In this document: positions 7,930 through 43,262 of the stretch, piece by piece
Layout: each line of letters begins with the position of its first letter
Numbering within the stretch: the first letter of the stretch is position 1
DNA from: an uncultured Clostridia bacterium
Lineage (GTDB): Bacteria; Bacillota; Clostridia; Christensenellales; UBA1242
Direction: 5' to 3'
Assembly: GCA_944376905.1 (NCBI GenBank)
Contig: CALWEA010000001.1
Coordinates: 214,676 to 278,675 of the forward strand
Length of the DNA: 64,000 nucleotides
The notes under the pieces: generated by a model
Databases searched by the model: none
What the model saw: the letters and a program-made list of their open reading frames with translations, nothing else
What the model was told of the DNA's origin: nothing
Position numbers and translations under genes: made by a program

Positions 7930-9222
7930 CTATTTTTTTATAAACTTTGCAACTTGGCGAGCTAGAACTATGGAAAGCAACGGAGGTACAGCGTTTCCTA
8001 TTTCTAAATTTTTCATACTAGTTGAACCATAGAATTTATAACTATCTGGAAAACTCTGCAATCTGGCTCCTTCTCTAGTAGATAAAGCTCTTGAATCCCT
8101 TGGATGAATGCATCTTGAAGAAGAAGGACAAGCAAAATTTCTAGTAATAGTTGGAGCTGGCTTTTTCCACCACATTTTTGCATATGTATTTCCAAAACCG
8201 CTTTTAGGTCTTAGTTCTTCAGGTAAATCATTTTTTGAACCGCCATCTGGTAAAGCTTTCATTAATTTTATTAAGTGAGGCCCGTTTTTAGGTGAAATAT
8301 TATCTTTTAATTTTTCACAATCATGTACAAATTTCTGAAAATCATTTTTAGGATCTGAAGCATATTCGGTTTTCTCTTCGCCACTTTCCATAATTGGTAA
8401 ATCACTTAAAGCATCTTCTAAAGTAACATATGGCTTTAATCCTTTTGCTGTGCCATGTGTTGGAGAAGGATACTCAAAAGTATTTACACCTTTCGTTCCA
8501 ACCAAAATCACTCTTTCTCTTATTTCTGGCACTCCATAATCTGCAGCGTTTAAAATCTTATATTTCAAATCATATCCAATGTCTTCAAAACATTTTTGCA
8601 CTTCTTTAAATAAAGTCCCTTTGTTCATACTAAGAATTCCTGTTACATTTTCAAACAAAAATATTTTAGGTTGAATTATTTTAAGAATTCTGCAATATTC
8701 TTCAAATAAATGAGCTCTATCGTCATCTTGCCTTTTCCCTAATGTTGAGTATGATTGACATGGTGGTCCTCCGACAACAACATCAACTTTATTGGGTAAC
8801 TCTTGCTTTAATAAATCTTCTGTCAAATCCTTTATATCACAATTAATCATTTTTACATCAGGGTGATTCAAAGAGTAAGCCTTCGCGATATCTTTATCAT
8901 ATTCATTTGCTAACAATACTTTAAAATTATTATTTTGATTAAATCCATAGCTTAACCCACCCACACCTGCGAATAAATCAACTACAGTTATTTGTTTCTT
9001 ATTAAATAAAATTGGCTCCTCTTTTTCTTCTAAATCAAGAAGCTTATTGCCATCTATTTTAAAAACCTTTCCAATCATCTGTAAGTTTTCATAACTTGGT
9101 TTACTATTGTTGTTTATCCACTCTGATACCTGTGTTTGTGTACATGAGATTTTTTTTGCAAAATCATTTTGATTTAATCCTTCATCATACATAATGTTCT
9201 TAACAAGTTCTCCAATCAACAT
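7930..9222 (-). CDS. DNA (cytosine-5)-methyltransferase with N-terminal XRE-type HTH domain
   Basis: Motif I is DLFAGVGGLSYGF, motif IV is GGPPCQSYS, motif VI is FENV, motif VIII is GVPEIRERV, motif IX is TREGARLQSFPD and motif X is GNAVPP. The N-terminal 60 aa (LNQNDFAKKISCTQTQVSEWINN) form an HTH_3-like domain. Confidence 0.9.
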   Translation of the reverse strand: MLIGELVKNIMYDEGLNQNDFAKKISCTQTQVSEWINNNSKPSYENLQMIGKVFKIDGNKLLDLEEKEEPILFNKKQITVVDLFAGVGGLSYGFNQNNNFKVLLANEYDKDIAKAYSLNHPDVKMINCDIKDLTEDLLKQELPNKVDVVVGGPPCQSYSTLGKRQDDDRAHLFEEYCRILKIIQPKIFLFENVTGILSMNKGTLFKEVQKCFEDIGYDLKYKILNAADYGVPEIRERVILVGTKGVNTFEYPSPTHGTAKGLKPYVTLEDALSDLPIMESGEEKTEYASDPKNDFQKFVHDCEKLKDNISPKNGPHLIKLMKALPDGGSKNDLPEELRPKSGFGNTYAKMWWKKPAPTITRNFACPSSSRCIHPRDSRALSTREGARLQSFPDSYKFYGSTSMKNLEIGNAVPPLLSIVLARQVAKFIKK

Positions 9223-9343: not shown

Positions 9344-9829
9344 TTATTCGTTATAAAGATTATTTATTGTCAATCCTTTTCTTTTGGCATAATTCATAGC
9401 GATTTTTGCACCGCTTGGATTATGCTTTTTGTTTACATAACAAATTAAAGTGTCGCAGTTATCTATCATTTGCTGATTGCTTACAACAATTTTTCTTTTG
9501 TAATGTTCTTCTTCTATATCATACATGGTTGTTTTAACATCGGAGTATGGGATGTATTTTTCATCACCAAAGATTGGGTCATGGTCAATAATTGGTTCTA
9601 TTTCTTTAAAACTTGTAATCACTACTTCTATTTCAATATCTTTATAAATATTTCTTAATTCTCTACAAACACTTAAAGCAAGTTTATCAAATTCGCCATG
9701 TGTTCCCATTGTGAAAAACTTACAACCTTTTTTAATTTCTTGCTCAACTACACTATATAGGCTTTCTCTTATTTCATTGTATTTAAAAACATTTCTATGT
9801 CCTATAAAACAAATTTTCCTTTTTTGCAT
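9344..9829 (-). CDS. SLOG-superfamily protein (DUF1273/YpsA-like)
   Basis: N-terminal KICFIGHRN motif and the overall length and layout (GTHGEFDKLA...; C-terminal ...NQQMIDNCDTLICYVN) resemble YpsA/DUF1273-type SLOG proteins often carried on mobile elements. Confidence 0.5.
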   Translation of the reverse strand: MQKRKICFIGHRNVFKYNEIRESLYSVVEQEIKKGCKFFTMGTHGEFDKLALSVCRELRNIYKDIEIEVVITSFKEIEPIIDHDPIFGDEKYIPYSDVKTTMYDIEEEHYKRKIVVSNQQMIDNCDTLICYVNKKHNPSGAKIAMNYAKRKGLTINNLYNE

Positions 9830-9940
9830 AAAAACTCCTTACAATATATTATGCGTCATCATATTAGGCAGTTGCAAGTGTTTTGTCATCAAAATAGGCA
9901 ATAATATCAGTAAAGTAGTAAACTTTATGGAGATATTATT

Positions 9941-10354
9941 ATGATTGACTTTATAAAATTGGTTGAAAATATATTGGAAGAACAAGGCAAAACTAAGCAA
10001 GACTTATTCAAAAACAATGTTATATCTGAAAACACTTTTTTCAAATACAGACAACGCTGTCCAAGTCTTAAAACTGTAATTAATGTTGCAAACTATTTAA
10101 AAGTTTCATTAGATTATTTATTTGATTTTACAAGTGAAAATCATTTTAAAGAGTATAAAGAAGATAAATTTCATTTTTATGAAAATTTAATCTCTTATAT
10201 TGATAGTAAGAAAATTTCCGCTAGACAATTTTGTAAAGATTTAGGTTATTCAAAAGATAATATTATTCGTTGGAAAAATGGAGTTCAACCAACAATTCAA
10301 AGATTATTAGAAATGGCAGAGTATTTTGGATGTTCTATTGATGATTTGATTTAA
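9941..10354 (+). CDS. Transcriptional regulator with two XRE-type HTH domains
   Basis: There are two HTH_3-like halves (KTKQDLFKNNVISENTFFKYRQ... and ISARQFCKDLGYSKDNIIRWKNG...). It is divergent from the SLOG gene. Confidence 0.6.
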   Translation: MIDFIKLVENILEEQGKTKQDLFKNNVISENTFFKYRQRCPSLKTVINVANYLKVSLDYLFDFTSENHFKEYKEDKFHFYENLISYIDSKKISARQFCKDLGYSKDNIIRWKNGVQPTIQRLLEMAEYFGCSIDDLI

Positions 10355-10370
10355 TAACTAGCATAAAAAT

Positions 10371-10393
10371 AGCCGAGAGTTTTGCTCCCGGCT
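10371..10393. terminator. Bidirectional rho-independent terminator
   Basis: AGCCGAGAG-TTTTG-CTCCCGGCT (9 bp, 1 mismatch) is flanked by an A-run and a T-rich run, between convergent genes. Confidence 0.6.
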
Positions 10394-10399
10394 GTTTAT

Positions 10400-10714
10400 T
10401 TAATTATTGTTTGAAATGTATAATTTATCTGCAACTTTTATTGCTTTATGAGTGCTACCGTTTATTATTTGGTCCATGTATTCAGGTTTACCATCAGCAG
10501 TTGCTCGTAAGAAAATATGGTTGTTATCTTCCTCTGCTGGTTCTATGTTTATGTCTATAATGTTTTCAAGTTTATTTACTTCTAGCACTTTTAATCCTTT
10601 TTGTATTAGGTATGAACTAAATTGCCATAGTTTTTCAAACATTCCGTTTGAGTCTATGATAAAGCAAAAGTCGTGTTCTGGATAGTAACCTGTAATTCTA
10701 AAATAATTTGTCAT
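10400..10714 (-). CDS. Hypothetical protein (104 aa); intact paralogue of the pseudogene at 21727..22038
   Basis: SD AGGAGG is upstream and the gene is last in the minus-strand operon. A near-identical second copy exists at 21.7-22.0 kb. The plus-strand ORF 10452..10685 is its antisense shadow. Confidence 0.6.
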   Translation of the reverse strand: MTNYFRITGYYPEHDFCFIIDSNGMFEKLWQFSSYLIQKGLKVLEVNKLENIIDINIEPAEEDNNHIFLRATADGKPEYMDQIINGSTHKAIKVADKLYISNNN

Positions 10715-10726
10715 AATAATTTCCTC

Positions 10727-12040
10727 CTATATGGCAAGTTGCCTTAATTGTTTATTTGCGTATGGTAACCATACTTTGTTTATAAAGTTCATAACTTTGC
10801 TATCTGGTTTTGAATTGTGGTCAGCATAGCATTGTAATATTTTGTGATTTTTTAGTGAATATTCAAGTGTAACAAATGGTTTGTTAGGTTTGTTTTTATT
10901 TCTTATAAAGAATATTAAACTTTCTTCTCTTACAAATTTTTGGTCATAGTTCATACTACCAACGCAGTGATGAAGTTTTTTGCCTTCATACACTAAATCT
11001 TCTGGACTTGTTGGAATTATTGAAATATACATATCTTTTAGGTTGTGTTGCAAAGACAAATATTTGTTAGCAATGTTTAAAAACTTTAAGTTAAACGCTT
11101 TTCTTTCTTCTTCGTCTGCCTTTTGTTTTGCAGTTGTGTATTCATCAATTCGTATATCGTGCCAACGCTTAAAGTTGTGTGGTATTTTGTTCTTGTTTTC
11201 TTGCATATTTAGTTTTAAATATTTGCAAGCATTTAAGTAATCAATATACAAACTAGCGCCAATTTGCTGAGAAGTGATATAATTAAAAAATTGCTCAATG
11301 TTGCCATTAAACAATTCTTTTATTTCTCTATAATGTTCATTTTTTGAAAATGATTTAATAAATAGTTCTAGTTGTTGTGTTTTATCTAAATCTTTATTTT
11401 GTTTATATGCTGTAATAATGGTTGATACATAGTAACTTTTAAGATATATTTCAAGCCTATTTTTAATAAGCCATTTTCTAAACTGTTTATCTTTTTCAAT
11501 TAGTTTTAGTATTGTTTTACTTGTAGCGTAATATTTTAAATTTAGCTTCATTAAATATTCTGCTTGTGGATATTTCTCATAAGTTCGCAAGTATTTTATG
11601 TAGTCTTGATATGTATATTCATTTGCTAAACTATATTTATATTTTTCAAATTTTAAAGCATATTCACGATTAACAATAGGGGCAAATGGGTCAAAGTATT
11701 TGTCTTCGGCATAACCCCAATTTCCGTATTCATAATATTTTGGTTGCTTTTGTAGTCCTTGTTCATACCAACCAACACTATATCCTGCAATCCAAGTATA
11801 TTCTATATCTTTTATAAAGCAATCTTTTGAATTTACTCCGTGAATTGCAACTTGTTTACAATACCAATTTTTGCCTTTGTTTTTAACTGCAACTGTTACT
11901 TTAACAAGTTCTTTATCGTTGGTTGTAAGGTAAGCATAAAATCGTTTTTGACTGTTTTGATTTAATCTATCTTGTTTATCTGCTTTTTTAATCAAGTTTA
12001 GTATATATTTGGGAATAGGTTTAATCTTTTCAATTTTCAT
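10727..12040 (-). CDS. PcfJ-like protein (conjugative-plasmid family)
   Basis: The C-terminal region EGKKLHHCVGSMNYDQKFVREESLIFFIRNK..PFVTLEY matches my recollection of the PcfJ-like domain (HCVG motif). It lies directly downstream of a PcfK-like gene, as on pCF10-type elements. Confidence 0.55.
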   Translation of the reverse strand: MKIEKIKPIPKYILNLIKKADKQDRLNQNSQKRFYAYLTTNDKELVKVTVAVKNKGKNWYCKQVAIHGVNSKDCFIKDIEYTWIAGYSVGWYEQGLQKQPKYYEYGNWGYAEDKYFDPFAPIVNREYALKFEKYKYSLANEYTYQDYIKYLRTYEKYPQAEYLMKLNLKYYATSKTILKLIEKDKQFRKWLIKNRLEIYLKSYYVSTIITAYKQNKDLDKTQQLELFIKSFSKNEHYREIKELFNGNIEQFFNYITSQQIGASLYIDYLNACKYLKLNMQENKNKIPHNFKRWHDIRIDEYTTAKQKADEEERKAFNLKFLNIANKYLSLQHNLKDMYISIIPTSPEDLVYEGKKLHHCVGSMNYDQKFVREESLIFFIRNKNKPNKPFVTLEYSLKNHKILQCYADHNSKPDSKVMNFINKVWLPYANKQLRQLAI

Positions 12041-12043
12041 TTT

Positions 12044-12652
12044 TTACTCCTTTAAGGTTAGTTTATTTTCAAGTAATGATGCTAAAAATTTAGCGTTTTC
12101 TTTATCAAAATTATTTACAGGTGATTTACTTAAAATTTCACCCGTTTCTTTTGATATAATCTTTCCATTAAATTCAATAACACTTTCATTGTTTTGCGTT
12201 TGTTTTTCTTTTATATTTTCAACATTGTCATCTTTATTTGTGGATAAGTCCATAAGTTCAAAAAGCGTTGGTTGTTTATTTTCTTGTTTAGGTTTTGTTG
12301 TTGGTTTAGAAGGTGTTATAACTTTTATTTCAGGTTTATATTCAGTTCCATCTTCGTTATAAAGTTTGCCTTCAAGTTCATTTTCTTCAAAATAGTGAAT
12401 AGCCCAACCAAAAACTGTTTTATCTTCAATACAAGCATAATTTGCTCCTTGCTGTGCTAGTTTTCTTGCTTCTTCGTTTGCATATTGCATAAAAGTATCA
12501 AGCGTTTTTTTATTGATTAAAGTCTTATTATCTTTAACAATTTTCACGCCATTATTTATTTTGTCAGCAAGTTTTTCACTAACATTATTTTCTAAATATT
12601 CTTTGATTATTTCGTATTCCTTCTTGTTAGTTTCAAGATTTAGTTTAATCAT
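12044..12652 (-). CDS. PcfK-like / AcrIIA9-family protein
   Basis: The N-terminal domain FMQYANEEARKLAQQGANYACIEDKTVFGWAIHYFEE resembles the PcfK-like fold that NCBI annotates as the Cas9 inhibitor AcrIIA9 family. The C-terminal part is an acidic/Lys-rich linker. Confidence 0.55.
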   Translation of the reverse strand: MIKLNLETNKKEYEIIKEYLENNVSEKLADKINNGVKIVKDNKTLINKKTLDTFMQYANEEARKLAQQGANYACIEDKTVFGWAIHYFEENELEGKLYNEDGTEYKPEIKVITPSKPTTKPKQENKQPTLFELMDLSTNKDDNVENIKEKQTQNNESVIEFNGKIISKETGEILSKSPVNNFDKENAKFLASLLENKLTLKE

Positions 12653-12661
12653 AATTTCCTC

Positions 12662-13039
12662 CTAAAATGGTAGTTCTTTAAGTAATTCACAAATTTTACC
12701 TTCTAGTCTTTCTAATGTGGTAAAGTGATTAAAACCACCTTTGTAATCAACTTCATTTTTTGCTGTTCTAATAAGTATGTGGTTATACCAATCGTTGTTA
12801 AAATACCTAACATCACTAATTGAAATATATATACATCTATTTTCCATTCCACCTTTAATAAAGGCAGAAAAGCAATAGTGATTTTTGTTTACTTTTATCA
12901 AACGCCAATTATTGTTTTTACAAATAGTTTTAAGAAAGTTTATATACTTCGTTTGAAAAGATATGTAGTCGTTACCTGTGTAGCAACCAGATGAAAATTC
13001 ATAATTTATATATGATTTTAAAGCGTTTATATTTGCCAT
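12662..13039 (-). CDS. Hypothetical protein (125 aa) in the anti-defence operon
   Basis: ATG 13039 is preceded by AAAGGAG and is preferred over the track start at 13060, which overlaps the upstream gene. No recognisable motif. Confidence 0.5.
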   Translation of the reverse strand: MANINALKSYINYEFSSGCYTGNDYISFQTKYINFLKTICKNNNWRLIKVNKNHYCFSAFIKGGMENRCIYISISDVRYFNNDWYNHILIRTAKNEVDYKGGFNHFTTLERLEGKICELLKELPF

Positions 13040-13053
13040 TGTATTATTCTCCT

Positions 13054-13461
13054 TTAACATGTTCTAATAACACCACCATATTGTGGTTTAATTCCTATTG
13101 AGCCAAATTCACTAAAATTTTCTTCATCTTTGTTTACGACATAACATAAAGCAATATCGTGTTTAATATCGTCTTTGTCATAGTCCCATTCTTGTTCATG
13201 TTGAGATACATAAAGCAGTGAATATAACTCACCAAATTCTGTGTAATTGTGGATAACATGATAAACAACTGCATTGTATTTTTCTTCAAATCTTTTAACC
13301 ATTTCTTGTTGCTCATTATCTAGCCAAAATAAAATGCCACCATGTTCGCTAACATTGATGACATTTTCTTTTTCAAATTCTTTAATTGCTTGTGAATATA
13401 TTTTTAACATTTTCATTCTTTCAATAGCTTCTTGTTTTTGTTTGATTTTTAATTCTTCCAT
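13054..13461 (-). CDS. Hypothetical protein (135 aa) in the anti-defence operon
   Basis: Tightly packed behind ardA with SD AAGGAG upstream. The protein is acidic and I recognised no motif. Confidence 0.5.
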   Translation of the reverse strand: MEELKIKQKQEAIERMKMLKIYSQAIKEFEKENVINVSEHGGILFWLDNEQQEMVKRFEEKYNAVVYHVIHNYTEFGELYSLLYVSQHEQEWDYDKDDIKHDIALCYVVNKDEENFSEFGSIGIKPQYGGVIRTC

Positions 13462-13472
13462 AATTTAACTCC

Positions 13473-14024
13473 TTATATAATTTCAATTATTCCATTTTCA
13501 TATTCTTCTGCTGTACCTGAACCTATGTATTGTCCATAAGCCTCAAAATCTATAAAATCAATTAAATTTTCTGGTATGTTATAACAACAGTTTTCAAAGT
13601 ATTCTTTTCCATAGTCAGCCCAATCGTATCCTTTCCAAATGGTGATATCATCGTCCCAATGATTGCCACGAGAGTTTACTAAGTCTTTCCATTCTTCAAA
13701 ATTTCTAACTTCAAGATATGCTTGCATAACTTCGTATTTATAACTGTTTTCAAGCACTCCTGACTCTTGTAAAATTTCAAATAAATGTTTAGGGTGTTCA
13801 TAGTCCCAATTGTTGTAAACATCAATTCCTTCAATGTCTTGTATAAATAGTTCTTCATCAATGCCATTTAGTTCAAAGCCTTCTTTTTGGAGTTCTTCTT
13901 CAATTTCTTCCCAACTTGAATAGTCGGAAAGAGTTAACCATTTTGAACCTAATGCTTTTTCGTTACAAGCGTTGTATGAGCCCCAAGAACCAATAACAAT
14001 TTTAATTTCATCTAATGTGTTCAT
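13473..14024 (-). CDS. ardA: Antirestriction protein ArdA
   Basis: The N-terminus IKIVIGSWGSYNACNEKALGSKWLTLSD and the DEELFIQDIEG motif, plus the C-terminus NLIDFIDFEAYGQYIG...YENGIIEI, parallel Tn916 Orf18/ArdA (YIANLGKYNEG..., AIHDYE, NYIDYQAYGRDL...GIFEI). The protein is strongly acidic. Confidence 0.75.
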   Translation of the reverse strand: MNTLDEIKIVIGSWGSYNACNEKALGSKWLTLSDYSSWEEIEEELQKEGFELNGIDEELFIQDIEGIDVYNNWDYEHPKHLFEILQESGVLENSYKYEVMQAYLEVRNFEEWKDLVNSRGNHWDDDITIWKGYDWADYGKEYFENCCYNIPENLIDFIDFEAYGQYIGSGTAEEYENGIIEII

Positions 14025-14036
14025 AGTTTTTACTCC

Positions 14037-14300
14037 TTAATCATTAATTTTTTCAAAGTTGTCAATATCTATTTTTGAAAATTGACAACCATATTCAAAG
14101 TATAAATTGTTGTTTTTATCTTTTTTCAAATCGTATTCAATAACACTGATTTTTCCAAGATTAGTAACTGCAAGTTTAATAATCATTTTGTCAGTGTTAA
14201 TGTCAACAATGTTAAAAGTGATATCGTATTCACCATTGAAAAACTGAAATTCTTTTAAATACAATTTTTCTATTGAATACTTTTCATTTTCTTTTTTCAT
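14037..14300 (-). CDS. Hypothetical small protein (87 aa), first gene of the anti-defence operon
   Basis: SD AAGGAGG is upstream of ATG 14300. The gene is followed 12 nt later by ardA. Confidence 0.5.
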   Translation of the reverse strand: MKKENEKYSIEKLYLKEFQFFNGEYDITFNIVDINTDKMIIKLAVTNLGKISVIEYDLKKDKNNNLYFEYGCQFSKIDIDNFEKIND

Positions 14301-14311
14301 ATGTTAAACCT

Positions 14312-14581
14312 CCTTATATAAATTTGCCTTTTGGCGAAAGTGGCGAAGTAGCATTGTTTGGTAAGAAGGTTGTTTTATTTTTAATTTTTAAGTAGGAGTC
14401 AACGAAAAAGAAGAAAATATTGTATTAAAATTTATTGATTGCAACAAAAAAGACCAGGTTAAAAACCTAGTCTTATTAAATACATTTATTATGTTATTAA
14501 ATTGTTTAAGCAATATTTACTTCCGTTTACTCCTACGAAAACTATGCTACAAAAGACACTCAAAAGGCAAAGAGATATAAG
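14312..14581. repeat. ~270-nt interrupted palindrome (long imperfect hairpin) between gajB and the anti-defence operon
   Basis: Collinear complementary blocks are: 14313-19/14575-81 (7), 14323-33/14561-71 (11), 14339-42/14557-60 (4), 14348-54/14544-50 (7), 14392-404/14524-36 (13, 1 mismatch), about 14409-14435/14495-14520 (about 25, several mismatches), and the apex 14450-60/14465-74. Confidence 0.7.
14450..14480 (-). terminator. Rho-independent terminator of the Gabija operon (apex of the long palindrome)
   Basis: On the minus strand AAGACTAGGT-TTTT-AACCTGGTCTT is followed by TTTTT. It lies 140 nt downstream of the gajB stop. Confidence 0.5.
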
Positions 14582-14613
14582 GGAGAATTATATTTTGTTT
14601 AATTTATATTTGT

Positions 14614-15738
14614 TTAAGGAAGTTTATAAACACATAAATCATTTATTTTAATTTTTTTTAATTTATGTACATATTTTTGATCTTCGATAACTATAAAACA
14701 AGCATATTTTGCACGAGTTAACGCAATATATGTATTTGACCTTGTTTTATTTTTTAGTTCTAATGGTTTAAAAAACCAACTTATCATGTCTTTTGTTAAA
14801 AATAATAAAGTATAGTCAAACTCTAACCCTTTAGATTTTCCAACATTTATTGATTTTAAATTACCATTATAATAATTTTTATTATATCTGATTACTATCG
14901 GGTTTATTAATTTGGTTAATTTATCCATTTCTTCTGGAAAAATAAAATAAATACCATTGAATTCCCCTGTTTCGTTTAAATCAGATAATGATGGTTGTAA
15001 ATCAGGATATAAATTGTTTGCTTTTTCAATTATTTCTTGATTGCATCTATGAGTTGTATTTAAGGTATTTTCATCAATTTGACATAAATCTTTACAATGA
15101 GTTGAGAAAAATTTTTTTATTTCAAATCCAGAGTATTGTTTATATTTACTATCATAATGAGTAGTAAAAGTGCTTTGTCTAGGATCACCAACCATTATCA
15201 CTTTAATACCACTTTCCATTATATTTTTAATTAATTGAAAATCATAGCCAGCCATATCTTGAATTTCATCTATAAAAATATAATCATATAATGTTTTAAG
15301 TCTATTTAAAACAAGATTATTATTAATAACATTACATTTAATTGCAAATTTTGATATTTTATCAGAAAAAATGTACATTTCTTTTGAAAAATAATGATGC
15401 TTTAAATCTGATTCTGGCCAGCAGACAGGCACCCCATTCAAATAACATCTTACAGCAGATTTCCCTGAAATTAATATCAAACCATTAATTTCTTCTTTTA
15501 GTATTTTCCCTTGAAATGGTCGCACGCAATGCTCTAAAAGAAAGGAAAACCAAGGTTGCACTTTTATAAAAGATGGAATAGATTTATTTTTTTTAATAAT
15601 TTTATTTTTAATCGATTCTGTATTTTCATCAGTAAAAGTAGTTATTAAAATTCTTTTATTATTCATCTCTAATGCTTTATTAACTAGAAATGTTGTTTTA
15701 CCTGCGCCAGCACATGCGATTAATAATTTACTATCCAT
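14614..15738 (-). CDS. gajB: Gabija GajB, compact UvrD/PcrA-like superfamily 1 helicase (374 aa)
   Basis: Walker A is ACAGAGKTT, motif II is IFIDEIQDM, motif III is VGDPRQS, with GKSKGLEFD and YIALTRAK also present. ATG 15738 (MDSKLL) follows GAGGGG and overlaps the gajA stop by 8 nt (ATGGATAG). It is preferred over the track start at 15759. Confidence 0.7.
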   Translation of the reverse strand: MDSKLLIACAGAGKTTFLVNKALEMNNKRILITTFTDENTESIKNKIIKKNKSIPSFIKVQPWFSFLLEHCVRPFQGKILKEEINGLILISGKSAVRCYLNGVPVCWPESDLKHHYFSKEMYIFSDKISKFAIKCNVINNNLVLNRLKTLYDYIFIDEIQDMAGYDFQLIKNIMESGIKVIMVGDPRQSTFTTHYDSKYKQYSGFEIKKFFSTHCKDLCQIDENTLNTTHRCNQEIIEKANNLYPDLQPSLSDLNETGEFNGIYFIFPEEMDKLTKLINPIVIRYNKNYYNGNLKSINVGKSKGLEFDYTLLFLTKDMISWFFKPLELKNKTRSNTYIALTRAKYACFIVIEDQKYVHKLKKIKINDLCVYKLP

Positions 15739-17389
15739 TATCTTGCCCCTCAAATGCATTCATAATATAATTAGGATATTTAATTTTTTCTTTAGAATTA
15801 AATATTTTTAATGCGCAATCTGTTTTATTGGCATGCATATGTATTAAAAGTTCTTTTTCTGTTGCAAAATTTTTGTTTAAAATTCTATTAAAAATCTCTA
15901 AAGTGTTTGATTTAAGCAATTTCGGTTCAAGTGTATTAAAATTAAATTTTTCTCCATCATCTAGTATGAAACCATCACTATCAACTACATCATCATAGGA
16001 AATATAAATATTTTCTTTTTTGTTTTTTCCTAAATAATTTTCATATTTTTTTTGCAAGTTTTCAATATTTCCGTCATTATCAGTTACTACGCTTACTTTA
16101 ATATTTAATTTTTCTGCAATCTCTAAAAATCTTAAAAAAGATAAACCAACAGACATAACATCAATATTATCCTGAATAGGTAACTTATTGTGTTTATCTA
16201 AATATGCTCTTTGAACTATTAATTCATCAGAGTCACCTTCGACTAAAATTATTTTTTTTGCAAGAATTAGTCTTAGTGTATCATAACCTGAAATTCTATT
16301 AAAAAACATATATGTATCTTCTGTTAAATCATTTAATGATAAAATTTTTTTATCATTTAAAAGTCTTAAAGATTTTAAGCCTAATTTATTAGCAACAAAA
16401 CTACTATGAGTAGTTAGTATTATTTGTTTCTCTTGATTGTTAGTTTCTAATGTGCTTATTAGTTCATTTAATTTAGCATATGTTAAATGGTTTTCTGGTT
16501 CTTCAATTAATATCACAGATGCTTTTTGTGTTTGTTCTGACACCAATGCTAAATTAGTTTTTATTATCGCCTGTTCTCCTTTACCTATAAAAGTATACGG
16601 TATTCCATCCATTAAAGTTGTTAATGTGTTTTCCCATGCATTTTTAGTTTGCAACTCTACTGAAATGGAAATCTTTTTATTTGAAATTTTTGTTTGATCT
16701 TGAATTTTTAAATTAATGTTTTGAACATCAGAATTATTCCTGAATTCATCTACTAATTTTCTGTGAGATTGAGAAATTTTTACTTTATCTTCATCCGATA
16801 AAGCATCCCTTAAAATTTTAGTAAAATGTACATCACAACCACTAAATGATTTTATGGAAGATGAATCTATAAAAGATGATTTAAATTTTAAATCTCTTGG
16901 TGTAAATTTTTTACGAGCAAAAGTTGTCCATGTTACATCATAATATTCTACAGGTAAACTTGTTATTTCTGTAGCGGAGTGTGTAAATTCATCATAAATT
17001 TTATTAAATTCTTCATTGTATTTTATCTCAAATATAAATCCTGAGTATTCGCTATTATCATAAAAATTTGCATCTCCTTTATAAAATTCATCATCAATTT
17101 GATTGAAAAAAATTTCAATCTCAATACTTGGTAATTTTATAGGTGAATCAGATTTTAATCTCTTTAGGTATTCTTTTACACATTCTGCATTAAATAAATT
17201 TTGAGATATTTCATTTTTAATTAATTTCCCATCGTAAGTACCTGAACAGGCTAAATGAATTGCTTCTAATATTGTTGATTTTCCAGCTTCATTCATTCCT
17301 ACTAAAATATTTAATTTAGAATCTAAGTCTATGAAAAAATTATCTTTAAAAGATTTAAAATTTTTTATTCTTACTTTTGATATTACCAT
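15731..17389 (-). CDS. gajA: Gabija GajA, OLD-family ABC-type ATPase fused to a TOPRIM nuclease
   Basis: The N-terminus is VRIKNFKSFKD...LVGMNEAGKSTILEAI (Walker A), Walker B is VILIEEPENHL, and the C-terminal TOPRIM is ILVEGDSDELIV...VVTDNDG. ATG 17389 follows GAGGTG, and the track's GTG at 17395 lies inside the SD. The OLD-plus-UvrD pairing marks Gabija, i.e. class 2 OLD nucleases. Confidence 0.8.
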   Translation of the reverse strand: MVISKVRIKNFKSFKDNFFIDLDSKLNILVGMNEAGKSTILEAIHLACSGTYDGKLIKNEISQNLFNAECVKEYLKRLKSDSPIKLPSIEIEIFFNQIDDEFYKGDANFYDNSEYSGFIFEIKYNEEFNKIYDEFTHSATEITSLPVEYYDVTWTTFARKKFTPRDLKFKSSFIDSSSIKSFSGCDVHFTKILRDALSDEDKVKISQSHRKLVDEFRNNSDVQNINLKIQDQTKISNKKISISVELQTKNAWENTLTTLMDGIPYTFIGKGEQAIIKTNLALVSEQTQKASVILIEEPENHLTYAKLNELISTLETNNQEKQIILTTHSSFVANKLGLKSLRLLNDKKILSLNDLTEDTYMFFNRISGYDTLRLILAKKIILVEGDSDELIVQRAYLDKHNKLPIQDNIDVMSVGLSFLRFLEIAEKLNIKVSVVTDNDGNIENLQKKYENYLGKNKKENIYISYDDVVDSDGFILDDGEKFNFNTLEPKLLKSNTLEIFNRILNKNFATEKELLIHMHANKTDCALKIFNSKEKIKYPNYIMNAFEGQDNG

Positions 17390-17404
17390 ACGCACCTCGT
17401 TTTA

Positions 17405-17508: not shown

Positions 17509-17537
17509 GTACGGTTCTAAAGTTAAGCACTCCGCCA
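17509..17537. repeat. 29-nt exact direct repeat, copy 1 (GTACGGTTCTAAAGTTAAGCACTCCGCCA)
   Basis: Identical to 22099-22127. Similarity extends about 6 nt further upstream (TTTGCA/TTTGTGCG). It is immediately followed by a strong terminator hairpin. Confidence 0.85.
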
Positions 17538-17580: not shown

Positions 17581-18011
17581 ATAAAAAAGCGGTAATTAAT
17601 TGTAACACTTCGTTTTTTTATTGTTTTCTTTTTTTTAATACTGCTTTAGTTAATAATTTTTGTTTTTCTTGTTCTAAATCAAAGTTGTCTATTAAGTTAT
17701 GGAGTGATGAATGTAAAAAATATATCATAAACTTTTAAGCAAAGCAGATACAATAAGGTATATAGCTGAAGAATACACAAAAACTTGCATGTCAGAAACA
17801 AATGACTATATGTTTAAAAATTCTTCAAAGGTTATTGCCTTATTTAATGCTTACAAGATGGAACAAAATCAACTATTTAAAGAGCTAAATAATTGGGTGT
17901 GATGATTGATATTATAGGAATATAATATGACTTATTATAAACTTTTATAATTTTATATAAAATAGAGACAAAATATTTATTATATGTTATAATATTTTCA
18001 TGGAGGTGTAT

Positions 18012-21000
18012 ATGAAGAAGTTTTTAAAATTGTTCATATTATTAATATTTATTAGTCCGTGCATTTTTGTATTTTCGGCGTGCGACTCTGGGAAAGACAA
18101 TAGACAAGCACCAGTATATCAAGGAATGGTTGTTTCTGCAGTAAATGAGCCAATGATGATGTCGGCAATGCATTTTAATCCCGATAATCCATTTGGTGAT
18201 AATGCCGCAAATATTGAAGACCACGCAAGTTCTTTGTTTGTCTTGGATTCAACAGAAAAAATGTATTATGCAGATTCTAATGAAGATGTGTTTATTACAA
18301 TAAAATTATCAAATCCGGATAGTTTTGAAATAATGTCATTTACTTTAAACGGAGTTAAGTATAGCTCATATATGTTTGAAGATGGTTCAGATTTGGAGAA
18401 TTTAATCCTTAAAGTAAATGTTGGCAATATTGTAGGAGTAAAAGATTATACGATAGATGCTATAAAATATGTTGATAAAACAGAAATTAAAGATGTTGTT
18501 ATGGATGGAGATAAAACCATAAAAATTGGACTTGGAGCAAGCAACTCCACTTATTCTGAAGTAACAAACTCAAGAGTTTATCTTAACAAAATTAATTTAT
18601 CTATTAATTTGATAGACATTTACAATCTTATAGAAAAAACAAATGGTAACACTAAAGTTGTTATCTATGATGGTGTAAGCATTATTGATTATAAAGATTT
18701 AGCAGTTGGTCGAAATGATATAGTTTTTGATAAACTTAACCCTAACACAGTTTATCAATTTGCTATAATTTCTGCCTATGACGATTTAAGTGGAAATGGA
18801 ACAAAAATGCATACATTATACAAAAATGCTTTTTGTACAAATGCAATTCTATCATTTAATGTAGAATCGATAAATCAAACTTCAATAAATTTCAATTATA
18901 TTTGGGATAATGAAGTTGAAAATAAAACAATTGTATCTCAAGAATTATATTTAGATGAAACAAAAATTTCAAACATTGACATTTCTCAAACTTTTATACA
19001 AGATTTATTAAGCAATAGAGAATATACAATTGTTACTACCTATAAAAACTTAAATAATATTAGTGAAACAATACAATACACATTTACAACTTTTGCAAAA
19101 GAAACTCCAAATATAAATTTAACACAAAAATCATTAACACAAACTGATTTTGAATTTGTAGTTGATATTGAAGATTTAGATAATGTTGGCTCAATTGAAA
19201 AAATTGAATTATTACACGATGATGATGGTGCGATTATTTTAAATAATGAAGTAAGAACAATTTCTGATTTGTTAAGTGATAATGATTATACGATTAAAGT
19301 TTCTTATTCTTATGATGTAAATGATGGTTCTGGAGAACAGACAATAATTAAAGAATTATCATTTCATACATTATCAAAAAGCGCTCCAGTTGTAGTATTT
19401 AAAGATATTTCTTCATTACAAAGTGAGATTACTTTTAATTATGAATTAACTGATAATGATAACATTTGCACTGTAACAAAAGCGGAAATTTACGAAGAAA
19501 CAAATAAAATAAAAACGATAACAGATTTAACAAATAAAACTTTTAATGAATTAAATTCAAATACAGAATATACAATAAAACTTTGGTATAGTTACGATTT
19601 AAACGATGGTATGGGAATTAAAGAAACTTTCATAATGACTTCATACTATACAATGGCAAGCGAAATAACAGTTACAGCTATTTCTACCTTAAATGAAACC
19701 AACCCAAAAGTTGGCGAAGAAATTCATGTAAGCATAGCATTTAACAATCCATCTAACATTGAAATTAATTCTTTCTATATAAATGGAATTAATTCAGAAG
19801 TTGTTGGAGGCAATAAAATATCTTCAGCAATTGTAAAATTTATACCTGATTTTGAAGGTGGAGAATATCAAATATCATTAACCAAAATTTCATATTTAAG
19901 AAATGGTAATTTACTTACACAAAATATTAGTTCTGATTATTCAACCTCTATATTAGTATTAGGAAGTTTAAAGGTTAAATCTTTTGAAAGAGAAAGTCAA
20001 AAAGATTATTTTACAACAAATGATGATAATATTGTTATAGAATTAGACAACCCAACAAATTACAATATATTTGATATTCATATAAAATATAATTCAACAG
20101 AAAAAATTATCACTTCAGACAATTTTGAAATAAGTAACAATGTTTTAACTTTTAAAGCATCAACATTTAATTTGGGTTTAGCAAGTACATTGACACTTGA
20201 ATTAACTGCTATTACTTATGGAATTGAGGGAGTAACAGCAAAGGCAGACTATAATTTAACTCCTATTATAATAACATATTTATCTGACAGTACAGTAAAT
20301 GAAATTACAACAATTGAACAATTTAAAAATATGCAAAATAACAAATCATATAAACTAATGAACGATTTAGATTTTGCAAATGAATCTTGGACTCCTATTG
20401 TATTTGAAGGAGTTTTAGATGGCAATAATCATAAAATCAAAAATTTGTCTTATGTTACTGAAGTATTAGTATCCACTAATTACAATTTTGCATTATTTAG
20501 TCAATTTGCTGGTGTTATTAAAAATTTAGAAATTGATTCAATGTATATTAGTGTTTATGGCTCTATGAATATTAATATTGCTGGCATTGCTATTACTACA
20601 GGAAATAATATATTTGCAAACACAGCAATTATAAAAGATTGTATTGTAACTGGAGATATATATATAAAAAGCAATAATCAATCACAATCAATGGTTGCTA
20701 ATATTGGTGGTTTAATATCAAAATCAGATGCCATCTGTAAAGCAATCAACTGTTCAACCAATGTTAATATCAATATAGAAGATTGTGAGGGTTATGAAAT
20801 TAATGCTGGTGGTATTATTGGTAAAGCTTGGACAACAGATAAAAGAATAGAAATTAACAAATGTTCTGCGTTTGGAAATATAACTATAAACAAAGCATCT
20901 ACTGTTTATGCTGGTGGAATTGCCGGTTATGCTTATAAGAGCATTGAAATAAATAACTGTTATACAACGGGAGATATGACTGTTACTACAAATGAGGGAG

Positions 21001-21419
21001 ATATTGATATTGGTGGTTTGGTAGGACATGTTCACATTATATCTATTTCTAATTGTTATACAACAGGTAATTTATATGCTTACTCATATTATTCAACAGT
21101 TAGTGTAGGAGGTTTAATGGGAGACTTAAATCTATCTTCTGTTGTTAATGTTAATAGTTGCTACACTGTGGGAAATTTAACAGCTATTTGCGAGACAGAT
21201 CAATGGAATTATGCATCTGCAGGTAGTATGATTTCAATAGGACTGTCCTCTTTGCAAGCACAAAATTTTTATAAGTATGAAAACCAAGTAATAAATACAA
21301 AAGGTTATAGTGCAAATCAAATAGAAGCAAATATGCAAACAATATGGGAATTTATTCAAAGCAACTGGGATTCTTCTATTTGGAATTTACACGCAGATAA
21401 AAATCCTACATTAAAATAA
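18012..21419 (+). CDS. Large surface lipoprotein with tandem Ig/FN3-like repeats and C-terminal GLUG-motif repeats
   Basis: ATG 18012 is preceded by GGAGGTG. The signal peptide ends in the lipobox FVFSAC. The centre has about 90-aa repeats (..EYTI(K/V)..YSYD(V/L)NDG.G..). The C-terminus has repeated GGIIGKA / AGGIAGYA / IGGLVGHV / VGGLMGDL followed by ..NCYTTG.., as in GLUG-motif domains. Confidence 0.65.
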   Translation: MKKFLKLFILLIFISPCIFVFSACDSGKDNRQAPVYQGMVVSAVNEPMMMSAMHFNPDNPFGDNAANIEDHASSLFVLDSTEKMYYADSNEDVFITIKLSNPDSFEIMSFTLNGVKYSSYMFEDGSDLENLILKVNVGNIVGVKDYTIDAIKYVDKTEIKDVVMDGDKTIKIGLGASNSTYSEVTNSRVYLNKINLSINLIDIYNLIEKTNGNTKVVIYDGVSIIDYKDLAVGRNDIVFDKLNPNTVYQFAIISAYDDLSGNGTKMHTLYKNAFCTNAILSFNVESINQTSINFNYIWDNEVENKTIVSQELYLDETKISNIDISQTFIQDLLSNREYTIVTTYKNLNNISETIQYTFTTFAKETPNINLTQKSLTQTDFEFVVDIEDLDNVGSIEKIELLHDDDGAIILNNEVRTISDLLSDNDYTIKVSYSYDVNDGSGEQTIIKELSFHTLSKSAPVVVFKDISSLQSEITFNYELTDNDNICTVTKAEIYEETNKIKTITDLTNKTFNELNSNTEYTIKLWYSYDLNDGMGIKETFIMTSYYTMASEITVTAISTLNETNPKVGEEIHVSIAFNNPSNIEINSFYINGINSEVVGGNKISSAIVKFIPDFEGGEYQISLTKISYLRNGNLLTQNISSDYSTSILVLGSLKVKSFERESQKDYFTTNDDNIVIELDNPTNYNIFDIHIKYNSTEKIITSDNFEISNNVLTFKASTFNLGLASTLTLELTAITYGIEGVTAKADYNLTPIIITYLSDSTVNEITTIEQFKNMQNNKSYKLMNDLDFANESWTPIVFEGVLDGNNHKIKNLSYVTEVLVSTNYNFALFSQFAGVIKNLEIDSMYISVYGSMNINIAGIAITTGNNIFANTAIIKDCIVTGDIYIKSNNQSQSMVANIGGLISKSDAICKAINCSTNVNINIEDCEGYEINAGGIIGKAWTTDKRIEINKCSAFGNITINKASTVYAGGIAGYAYKSIEINNCYTTGDMTVTTNEGDIDIGGLVGHVHIISISNCYTTGNLYAYSYYSTVSVGGLMGDLNLSSVVNVNSCYTVGNLTAICETDQWNYASAGSMISIGLSSLQAQNFYKYENQVINTKGYSANQIEANMQTIWEFIQSNWDSSIWNLHADKNPTLK

Positions 21420-21726: not shown

Positions 21727-22038
21727 TCAATTTTTATTTCTATCTGGTATGTCAATCTTATCATCAGCCTTAATTGATTTATGTATAGTTTGGTCTATGT
21801 ATTCAGGTTTGCCATCAGCAGTTGCTTGTAAGAAAATGTGGTTGTTATCTTCCTCTGCTGGTTATATGTTTATGTCTATAGTGTTTCCTAGTTTATTGAC
21901 TTCTAGTACCTTTAGTCCTTTTTGTATTAGGTATGAACTAAATTGCCATAGTTTTTCAAACATTCCGTTTGAGTCTATAATAAAACAAAAGTCTTGTTCT
22001 GGATAGTAAACTGTAATTCTAAAATAATATGCTTGCAT
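21727..22038 (-). pseudogene. Paralogue of 10400..10714 carrying a single in-frame TAA (21862-21864)
   Basis: The minus-strand translation is MQAYYFRITVYYPEQDFCFIIDSNGMFEKLWQFSSYLIQKGLKVLEVNKLGNTIDINI*PAEEDNNHIFLQATADGKPEYIDQTIHKSIKADDK... It aligns with copy A throughout. The TAA replaces the GAA (Glu) of copy A. Plus-strand ORF 21749..22006 is its antisense shadow. Confidence 0.75.
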
Positions 22039-42965: not shown

Positions 42966-43262
42966 AAAGAAGATAAATTTTAATTTTTAATAAATTTGAA
43001 GTTGAGTTTTTGCTTTATTTATATTAATTTTAGCGAAGTTAAGATTTTTATTTGATTATTATCTAGTTTAAAAAACATAAATTACTTAATTTATGTTTTT
43101 TTTATTAAATTTATTAATATTTAAGAAATACTTTTATTTTTCTTTATTTTTTTTAAAGTATGTGATATACTAACCATAGTTACATATTTATTAAATAATT
43201 TTTTTAAAAGGTAACCTTTTTTGTTTGTAATTTATATAAATAAGAGGGATCAAGGAGGATTT

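Follow-up and report, generated by a model that had tools for sequence, protein, structure and literature searches.

A seven-gene operon with anti-defense gene families recurs in uncultured Clostridia

The 64,000-nt stretch of DNA analyzed here, referred to below as the window, comes from an uncultured Clostridia bacterium and contains seven minus-strand genes (positions 14300 to 10400) that form a single operon. The operon starts downstream of a ~280-nt imperfect hairpin and encodes, in order of transcription, a small protein that we designate u87, the anti-restriction protein ArdA, the small proteins u135 and u125, a PcfK-like protein, a PcfJ-domain protein, and u104; it is closed by an intrinsic terminator (Table 1). 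We consider it rather likely that this operon serves as the establishment or anti-defense module of a family of ~35-kb integrative elements in uncultured gut Clostridia. An initial annotation of the window had described the same seven genes, with strong Shine-Dalgarno (SD) sequences and gaps of 12 nt or less between them. All seven open reading frames (ORFs) were confirmed, and AAGGAG, AGGAGG, or GGAG precedes every start as a ribosome-binding site. The gaps measure 12, 11, 14, 9, 3, and 12 nt, in order, and five of the six therefore fall within the limit originally given. In u125, it is the 125-aa version of the ORF that carries the SD, and homologues of this protein are 124 to 125 aa long.

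The gene order u87-ArdA-(variable genes)-PcfK-PcfJ-u104 is repeated in 13 genome loci, in the scaffold MT835493, and in about 40 metagenome loci (labels such as L003 and L012 denote the related loci that were compared). The 13 genome loci were obtained from a scan of one genome per species; they belong to uncultured Clostridia, their PcfJ proteins have 50 to 97% identity, and local tblastn searches found the order of the genes kept in them. This recurrence of the block is far beyond chance. The operon co-occurs with a gene for a rolling-circle replication protein (Rep) in the window, MT835493, L003, L009, L011, L012, L014, L056, L060, L096, and L101, and in every locus with both, the operon and rep are on opposite strands. 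The Rep gene is convergent with the operon at +5.4 to +7.6 kb in the compact loci L056, L060, L096, and L101, and it lies a few kilobases downstream of the operon in L003, L009, L011, L012, and L014.

The initial calls of ArdA and PcfJ held. ArdA matches its family profile (PF07275) over positions 3 to 153 of 155 with 53.3 bits against a cutoff of 27 (E = 6.3e−14), and the protein has a pI of 4.05 and a net charge of −31. PcfJ matches PF14284 with 103 bits (E = 1.5e−29), and its distant homologues are found in 577 plasmids and 263 phage records. A profile built from ArdA homologues (n = 7) reaches the PDB entry 2w82 (ORF18 ArdA; E = 1.9e−5) in the C-terminal domain only; searched against PDB as single sequences, ArdA, PcfJ, and PcfK had no match. 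The call of a PcfK/AcrIIA9-like protein stands in part. Its match to PF14058 is just above the cutoff (27.9 versus 27 bits) and partial (53 positions, 27 to 79 of 139), and it also matches phrog_7445 (E = 2.8e−9), but it has no NCBIfam match, the AcrIIA9 model included, at E ≤ 0.01, and a 23-aa motif is all that aligns with the Listeria AcrIIA9-family protein WP_121686731. The AcrIIA9 membership of this protein is, as judged from these matches, a weak assignment. ArdA genes often adjoin homologues of AcrIIA9 (PMC6739104).

TABLE 1 Features of the window, listed from left to right
Feature	Positions	Strand	Assignment or description
Coiled-coil membrane-anchored protein with Listeria-Bacteroides repeats	1-2745	plus	C-terminal 896 of 1008 aa; runs off the left end
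Zot-like P-loop NTPase	2758-3603	plus	phrog_197 "Zot-like toxin," 2.3e−8
HUH rolling-circle Rep (ORF2/G2P family)	4076-5110	plus	PF23343, 5e−11
Sequence-conserved hairpin just after rep	5240-5297	plus	Candidate double-strand origin or nick site
YpsA/SLOG-like protein	9344-9829	minus	PF06908, 24 bits, below cutoff of 27.7
Dual helix-turn-helix (HTH) regulator, N-terminal half RstR-like	9941-10354	plus	PF01381, 1.7e−13; NCBIfam phage_RstR, 7.9e−10, below cutoff
Intrinsic terminator closing the operon	10371-10393	minus	9-bp stem with 6 G-C pairs, then T-run
u104	10400-10714	minus	Directly 3′ of PcfJ; element-specific family, no Pfam family
PcfJ-domain protein	10727-12040	minus	PF14284
PcfK-like protein	12044-12652	minus	PF14058; AcrIIA9 superfamily, weak match
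u125	12662-13039	minus	Widespread small domain
u135	13054-13461	minus	Belongs to the PcfR family (Enterococcus pCF10-like plasmids)
ArdA anti-restriction protein (DNA mimic)	13473-14024	minus	PF07275
u87	14037-14300	minus	First gene 3′ of the hairpin; element-specific family, no Pfam family
~280-nt imperfect hairpin	14301-14600	minus	Directly 5′ of the operon; conserved structure
SD AAGGAGG	14315-14309		Paired with the hairpin 5′ flank
Hairpin 3′ arm			Operon sense: ..ATGCTAC..CAAAAGGC
Asymmetric bulge			~40 nt, between the TTGAC box and the hairpin 3′ arm
−35-like TTGACT	14402-14397		3′ strand of a stem
Apical terminator-like hairpin	14474-14450		Operon sense
Hairpin 5′ arm			Operon sense: GCCTTTTG..GTAGCATAG..GTAAACG
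GajB (Gabija)	14614-15759	minus	PADLOC, 2.3e−106; immediately 5′ of the hairpin
GajA (Gabija)	15731-17395	minus	PADLOC, 4.7e−199

The operon is preceded by a conserved and covarying hairpin

When folded as single-stranded DNA (ssDNA), the 313-nt spacer between gajB and u87 forms one long imperfect hairpin (−48.5 kcal/mol, z = −7.45). All related loci have the same hairpin immediately 5′ of their first operon gene, despite protein identities of ~50% and G+C contents that range from 27 to 50%. Read in the sense of the operon, the consensus begins with an anti-SD stretch, GCCTTTCG, GTAGCAYAG, and GTMAACG, reaches an apical terminator-like hairpin with a T-run, and returns through CGTTGAC(T/A), an asymmetric bulge of ~40 nt, CTATGCT, and CGAAAGGC to the SD and the start codon. 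The TTGAC(T/A) box hardly varies and is part of a stem. The exact pattern of the 5′ arm was found in 115 metagenome stretches and in one IMG/VR contig. In most loci u87, either alone or after a 99-aa "C5" gene, follows at +245 to +305 nt from the hairpin motif, and in the oriented loci u87 is followed by ArdA or u135, optional genes, PcfK, PcfJ, and u104.

The structure is conserved along with its position. Across 61 unique full-length copies the median z score is −7.0, and 58 of them have z < −4. RNAalifold predicted 42 pairs from nine divergent loci, 16 of which show compensatory changes, and 93.6% of the hairpin cells are paired, compared to 85% in shuffled alignments (none of 500 as high) and 40 to 48% with slid partners. 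Stem positions covary among 64 unique copies, with G-C in 37 and A-T in 25 copies at one pair, C-G in 47 and T-A in 12 at another, and A-T in 48 and T-A in 12 at a third. Because the search pattern fixed TAGCAYAG and GTMAACG, and the subsequent filter fixed CGTTKAC, conservation at these three motifs holds by construction; the covariation cited here comes from other columns. At the gathering threshold, two tRNAs are the only Rfam matches in the window and the hairpin is unmatched, and blastn searches of the hairpin against plasmid and phage collections also returned no match. The analysis thus flags a structured DNA or RNA element of ~280 nt that is absent from Rfam.

Several atypical copies of the hairpin were also observed. 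L025 (5454 to 6160) is a deletion derivative that has lost the entire operon; its hairpin adjoins a truncated rep, and the first start codon has changed from ATG to AGG. In L080 (274 to 611), a window-type copy breaks off just short of the last stem, and its opposite side is fused to sequence that resembles the 5′ portion of the window's mrr gene, at a junction unlike that of the window. Hairpin copies in L131, L133, L033, and L094 precede genes without similarity to u87, ArdA, or PcfJ, and these genes may represent alternative early operons.

Two of the four small proteins are specific to the element

The initial annotation treated u87, u135, u125, and u104 as uncharacterized. Of these, u87 and u104 are element specific, u125 belongs to a large family, and u135 is a member of the PcfR family and not an orphan. 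In tblastn searches, u135 has homologues in 328 plasmids, mostly Enterococcus pheromone plasmids, that align over the full length with 31 to 48% identity; in the 321 Enterococcus plasmids, the coverage is 94% and the identity 31 to 33% (E ~1e−11). Some of these plasmid homologues are annotated as PcfR, adjoin ssb, and lie near PcfK-PcfJ and a relaxase, and the WxxD, SEFG, and GG motifs are conserved in the alignment. Another homologue is located directly 5′ of AcrIIA9-PcfJ in the Listeria plasmid pLIS40, and homologues of both u125 and u135 occur in an array of the Finegoldia plasmid pFMC together with ssb, a zincin, and a JAB protein. The AlphaFold (AF2) model of u135 is confident (pLDDT 93.6, pTM 0.89). 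It has no fold match in PDB (best E = 0.077), and its sole matches in BFVD are two uncharacterized virome proteins.

The u125 family comprises 631 representatives (clustering at 50% identity, E ≤ 1e−3), and its domain is also found internally in proteins of 756 to 980 aa that contain MutS_I and ArdC-N domains. By guilt by association, the fusion to ArdC-N would tie u125 to anti-restriction. Two of the proteins that embed the domain, P0390 (756 aa) and P0376 (980 aa), have an N-terminal MutS domain I, and P0390 also has the ArdC-N domain; judging from this domain composition, they look like polyproteins assembled from modules of leading regions, i.e., of the DNA that enters first during conjugation.

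Homologues of u87 form 194 clusters (at 90% identity) and those of u104 form 803; none of the clusters is named, and neither protein has a Pfam family. The u87 gene is the operon gene closest to the hairpin, whereas u104 lies directly 3′ of PcfJ in every locus that extends beyond PcfJ. Neither has a tblastn match in the plasmid collection. The AF2 model of u104 has a pLDDT of 74.5 and finds nothing in PDB below E = 2.4. Searches of PHROGs and NCBIfam with u87, u135, u125, and u104 yielded nothing useful, and none of the four matched a characterized family with a function outside defense. We regard all four as legitimate candidates for anti-defense or establishment functions. Together, u87, the PcfR-like u135, u125, and u104 make up a defined set of co-conserved small proteins for anti-defense screening.

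A second, truncated copy of u104, comprising its first ~250 nt, is present on the minus strand of the window at 21781 to 22031, beside the start of Mrr (22041). It is 90 to 93% identical to the u104 genes of L003, L004, and L005 and is now a 58-aa ORF (21862 to 22038), with stop codons after it. A related element or a rearrangement probably left this copy behind as a scar.

The carrier is an integrative element with a filamentous-phage type of Rep

According to the initial annotation, the window lacks a relaxase, a type IV secretion system (T4SS), and an integrase. This holds for the canonical families in ORFs of at least 90 aa, the scope of the scan, but an HUH Rep and a Zot-like NTPase had been overlooked (Table 1). 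No MOB or T4SS families were detected among the scanned ORFs of the window, L012, L011, and MT835493. The Zot-like NTPase matches PF05707 with 19 bits, below the cutoff, and PDB entry 2r2a with E = 1.7e−3; it has no transmembrane segment, and a scan of IMG/VR with this protein found no relative. The window can be extended leftwards with L018, whose Rep is identical. There, a 53-aa hydrophobic ORF is followed by proteins of 404, 171, and 1008 aa, each of which starts with a hydrophobic, transmembrane-like segment, and then by Zot, two small basic ORFs, and Rep.

The boundaries of the element are visible in MT835493 (MT835493.1; L016 plus L017), an unverified 57-kb scaffold deposited as "Bacteriophage sp." and the sole record of the phage collection with close relatives of both PcfJ and Rep. 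The scaffold encodes homologues of all seven operon genes in the same order. A 32-nt fragment of tRNA-Arg(CCT) is present as a direct repeat at 10895 to 10926 and 46157 to 46188, and because this piece is repeated at both ends, the element measures ~35.3 kb. A tyrosine integrase (43961 to 45385) lies beside tRNA-Arg(CCT). At the end opposite the integrase, the hairpin and the operon start are located ~300 nt inside the element, with the operon reading inwards. Outside the repeats, the flanks carry the chromosomal genes nrdD and trxB. Records deposited as bacteriophages thus include at least one chromosomal fragment with an integrated ~35-kb element of the present family. Among the large ORFs between the two repeats, there was no match to capsid, terminase, portal, relaxase, VirB4, coupling-protein, or T4SS families, and the MT835493 lineage also lacks Zot. 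A "P-loop" in a 474-aa protein of MT835493 was rejected as an artifact of the regular expression; this protein is not similar to Zot and matches no Pfam family.

In L012, the operon starts ~2 kb from the chromosomal gene ychF. No attachment (att) site was found in the window, where collinearity with L003 ends at 17537; the window's copy of the element spans at least 16.5 kb. The G+C content of the window is ~25%, and to the right of ~26 kb the window encodes housekeeping proteins (FtsH, UvrC, and ABC transporters). The carrier is not of the relaxase/T4SS kind; it is integrative and has a G2P-type HUH Rep. Because its HUH Rep belongs to the G2P family of filamentous phages, and because a Zot-like ATPase and membrane-anchored proteins accompany it in the window lineage, the element family almost certainly passes through an ssDNA stage.

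In the larger lineage, to which MT835493 belongs, a multi-pass membrane protein of ~710 aa is always encoded beside rep (MT835493, 31813 to 33957, equivalent to L017, 1813 to 3957). It has homologues in L009, L011, L014, L025, L056, L060, L096, and L139 and no Pfam or PHROG match. This protein may be part of an export or transfer apparatus.

A conserved hairpin after rep contains a candidate nick site

Two strong hairpins (5110 to 5192 and 5240 to 5297; z = −9.4 for the joint fold) directly follow the rep stop codon. The second has the consensus GGCGTGTGCTTGTC, an inner hairpin, and CTTGT(T/A)TCAAGACAAGCACACGCC, and its CTTGTNTCA stretch is predicted to be unpaired, as is ACTTGTTCA (5274 to 5282) in the window copy. 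Hairpins after rep are present in 12 of 16 distinct rep-downstream sequences, from loci whose Rep proteins are ~50 to 100% identical (the window, MT835493, L009, L011, L012, L014, L056, L060, L096, L101, L102, and L125); at that position they are not found in L003, L048/L072, L094, and L103, where the sequence differs. The 5240-to-5297 hairpin is single-copy in the window, is kept in L004 and L005 despite the loss of rep, and coincides with the ends of short-read contigs. Because an unpaired, conserved motif lies in a hairpin beside the HUH gene, we infer that this hairpin is a candidate nick site for Rep.

A model of early expression from incoming single-stranded DNA

In the conjugative plasmids F and ColIb-P9, the leading region enters the recipient first as a single strand, and its anti-defense genes, which are templated by the transferred strand, are transcribed from the Frpo/ssi hairpin promoters ahead of complementary-strand synthesis (PMC11541004 and references cited there and in PMC8708921). 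We propose that the operon described here is an analogue of such a leading region, expressed early from incoming ssDNA by way of its upstream hairpin, and we put the probability of this model as a whole at about 0.5. Rep would nick its own coding strand at the hairpin just after rep, and the nicked strand, displaced in the 5′-to-3′ direction, would be the template strand of the operon. Because the operon is opposite rep in all loci with both, and because a conserved hairpin follows rep, the operon would be the first, or nearly the first, DNA to be displaced and to enter a new cell, with the transferred strand as its template; in the compact relatives, the operon begins ~0.3 kb from the putative nick. 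In the new cell, the ~280-nt hairpin would fold in the single strand and present a duplex TTGAC −35 box beside a pre-opened bulge. RNA polymerase could then transcribe the operon before the DNA becomes a double-stranded target, and it would perhaps also prime the synthesis of the complementary strand. ArdA would block type I restriction, and the PcfK-like protein, PcfJ, u135, u125, u87, and u104 are best read as co-expressed early proteins that would act as further anti-defense or establishment factors. The near-invariant TTGAC box is combined with a poor −10, and in duplex DNA the promoter is therefore expected to be weak, so that expression would be transient.

The location at the element end, the strand, and the upstream hairpin fit the logic of leading regions. 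As in the leading regions of F and ColIb-P9 (Samuel et al. 2024, PMC11541004), small co-directional genes include ArdA and an Acr-family protein, and the operon adjoins a presumed origin of single-strand displacement whose displaced strand would serve as template. The operon is enriched in anti-defense families, with ArdA, PcfK-family, PcfJ, and PcfR proteins and with u125, which elsewhere is fused to ArdC-N. The likeness to Frpo/ssi is one of layout, with an imperfect hairpin of ~300 nt directly upstream and a −35 box in a stem. Unlike F and ColIb-P9, the present element has a G2P-family HUH Rep in place of a relaxase, a transfer origin (oriT), and a T4SS, it carries neither ssb nor psiB, and its host is Gram-positive. 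Unlike Frpo, its hairpin has a poor −10 and no detectable match in the plasmid or phage collections.

The initial annotation had recognized the gene set as that of the leading region of Gram-positive conjugative elements. The families and their local synteny are indeed those of Gram-positive conjugative plasmids, but the carrier is an HUH-Rep integrative element. In pLIS40, the u135 homologue, AcrIIA9, and PcfJ are adjacent, and in pCF10-like plasmids, PcfJ-PcfK and PcfR-ssb are found by the relaxase. The operon shares with the pCF10-type pcf set of Enterococcus and Listeria plasmids the adjacency of PcfK and PcfJ and a PcfR homologue in the neighborhood, at protein identities of ~25 to 35%. 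In pCF10-type plasmids, PcfR-ssb and PcfK-PcfJ are divergent units beside a MOB relaxase, whereas in the present element PcfR, PcfK, and PcfJ are in one operon with ArdA, u87, u125, and u104.

Several observations weigh against early expression from ssDNA. No sequence feature indicates which strand is nicked or moved, ssb, the usual marker of leading regions, is absent, and the cargo genes between rep and the operon are in mixed orientation. In the larger, MT835493-type lineage, we recognized no ATPase and no transfer or packaging gene with a Pfam match. The best −10 hexamer of the hairpin usually agrees with the consensus at three of six positions and lies in the bulge; there is no good −10. 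The hairpin pairs with the SD in 49 to 54 of the 61 copies, and the anti-SD and SD covary, a pairing that would be expected of an RNA switch and is superfluous for a DNA promoter. A wobble test of which strand folds was balanced, with 78 A-C versus 72 G-T cells, and stem A can slip its register. Finally, a shorter (~165-nt) relative of the hairpin, consisting of GTCTTTCG ... CGAAAGAC followed by an SD and without the TTGAC box, is located directly after rep, and co-directional with it, in L094 and L103. This arrangement misfits a promoter that acts on the template strand only and hints at a role as an origin. In L094, the ORF after the short relative has a start resembling that of a serine recombinase.

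The SD pairing points to the strongest alternative, which we consider possible but less likely than the ssDNA model: the hairpin would act in RNA. Transcripts begun outside the element would stop at the central terminator, the 5′ arm of any read-through RNA would hide the SD of the first gene, and expression would come only from the operon's own ordinary TTGAC promoter once the element is double-stranded. The operon would still be one for anti-defense or establishment, and single-strand transcription would have no part in it. With RNA parameters, 54 of 61 copies pair the SD with the 5′ flank, and the apex carries, in the operon sense, a terminator-like hairpin and its T-run. Covariation cannot tell RNA from DNA, and the wobble test is neutral between them; moreover, the authors who described EGeRS1 of pLS20 rejected an ssDNA promoter for such long structured regions upstream of establishment genes (PMC8708921). 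The likeness to EGeRS1 of the pLS20 family is again one of layout, a long conserved inverted-repeat region directly upstream of establishment and anti-restriction operons of Firmicutes. EGeRS1 differs in its length of 400 to 600 bp and in having no recognizable promoter, and the transferred strand of pLS20 is the non-template strand (PMC8708921). Against a role in RNA, the stems that include the −35 box are more than 100 nt from the SD, yet their conservation and covariation are as strong as those of the SD stem. Because the terminator-like hairpin and the TTGAC box separate the two arms, a transcript that starts from the box cannot contain the 5′ arm. In addition, a −10 this weak would not make a good duplex promoter, no Rfam family matches the hairpin, and an HUH-Rep element needs a single-strand priming site, for which no other candidate was seen.

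Such a priming site might be all that the hairpin is, i.e., a single-strand origin (sso) at which RNA polymerase primes the complementary strand, with its place before the operon being incidental. We find this explanation unlikely. It would agree with the ssDNA intermediates implied by the Rep family, with the short hairpin relative directly after rep in L094 and L103, and with L025, where the hairpin persists beside a truncated rep although the operon is deleted. In ~40 loci, however, the 3′ arm continues directly, at a fixed distance, into the SD and start codon of the first gene, and the SD itself is within the conserved structure. Priming and transcription are also compatible, as Frpo is credited with both (Masai and Arai 1997, as cited in PMC11541004). 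Least probable of all, in our estimate, is that a tailed prophage or an ordinary conjugative element has its early region in the block and its structural or transfer genes outside the window: MT835493 was deposited as "Bacteriophage sp.," many tailed phages have homologues of PcfJ and PcfK, and the element continues past the left end of the window, but the 35-kb element of MT835493 has none of the corresponding genes among its large ORFs and is flanked by chromosomal genes, and the conserved hairpin patterns match one IMG/VR contig each while the scan with the Zot protein matched none.

Similar to inoviruses, including those of gut Clostridia (PMC10061712), the present elements have a G2P-type Rep, a Zot-like ATPase, chromosomal integration, and an RstR-like repressor, and a small hydrophobic ORF and N-terminally anchored proteins are located ahead of Zot. 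The inoviruses of gut Clostridia, however, are 6.5 to 16 kb long (PMC10061712), whereas the element spans ~35 kb in MT835493 and at least 16.5 kb in the window. Also unlike inoviruses, the Zot-like protein has no transmembrane segment, Zot is absent from the larger sister lineage, and the elements are nearly missing from IMG/VR. The combination of a small genome (~5 to 16 kb) with small hydrophobic coat proteins was not found in the present elements; one 53-aa hydrophobic ORF is located upstream in L018. A literature search found no report of ArdA in an inovirus.

Anti-defense islands and the ArdA, PcfK, PcfJ, and PcfR families are already known. What is new is the type of carrier (an integrative element with a G2P-type Rep and, in one lineage, Zot), the two conserved hairpins, and the co-conserved u87 and u104 families. 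More tentatively, we conjecture that these loci represent a new class of tRNA-integrating ~35-kb ssDNA elements, with a G2P-type Rep and sometimes Zot, that would have arrived at a leading-region strategy independently. The hairpin would be a Gram-positive counterpart of Frpo, the operon would be read first from the displaced strand, and u87 and u104 would be new early anti-defense or establishment proteins. Anti-defense islands and single-strand promoters have been documented mainly in relaxase-based conjugative elements of Proteobacteria, and the present locus is a covariation-supported candidate for the same logic in a rolling-circle Rep element without a T4SS in abundant gut Firmicutes. 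The strand, the nick site, and the promoter activity become directly testable with a few oligonucleotides.

Neighboring defense systems differ among the loci

The initial annotation also placed a dual-HTH regulator and a DUF1273/SLOG protein beyond the operon and noted Gabija, Mrr, and restriction-modification (R-M) genes next door. Profile matches bear out the regulator, and profile matches and PADLOC do so for Gabija and for the other defense neighbors in the window, Mrr (a type IV enzyme) and a Dcm-type methylase; the match of the SLOG protein is borderline (Table 1). Distant YpsA/SLOG homologues also follow u104 in L012, L083, L102, and L125. The R-M, SLOG, and HTH genes lie within a variable cargo zone between u104 and rep.

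Apart from the window itself, the near-identical L003 is the only locus with Gabija 5′ of the hairpin, and the collinearity of these two loci stops 142 nt beyond gajA, at 17537; Gabija is either strain-specific cargo or flanking DNA. In L043, a distant GajA/GajB-like pair (27 to 35% identity) is found 5′ of the hairpin on the opposite strand, and the operon has different neighbors in the other loci. The earlier suggestion that one of the four small proteins acts against the adjacent Gabija, Mrr, or R-M systems found no comparative support, the adjacency being limited to the window and L003, and our comparison of loci does not support a tie between these proteins and their defense neighbors.

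The Dcm-type methylase (7930 to 9222, minus strand) has an N-terminal HTH and is located beside two family-less plus-strand ORFs (6526 to 7245 and 7163 to 7909), the first of which contains C-x2-C ... H ... C-x2-C motifs that recall an HNH nuclease. The region from 6526 to 9222 is probably type II R-M cargo. Several very large surface proteins with Listeria-Bacteroides repeats or GLUG motifs are encoded in the window at 18000 to 21419 and 43221 to 46913 and in L018 at 1960 to 4986, and BspA-type leucine-rich repeat proteins recur near the elements (window, 23262 to 25691; L012, 2142 to 3341; L005; and L013).

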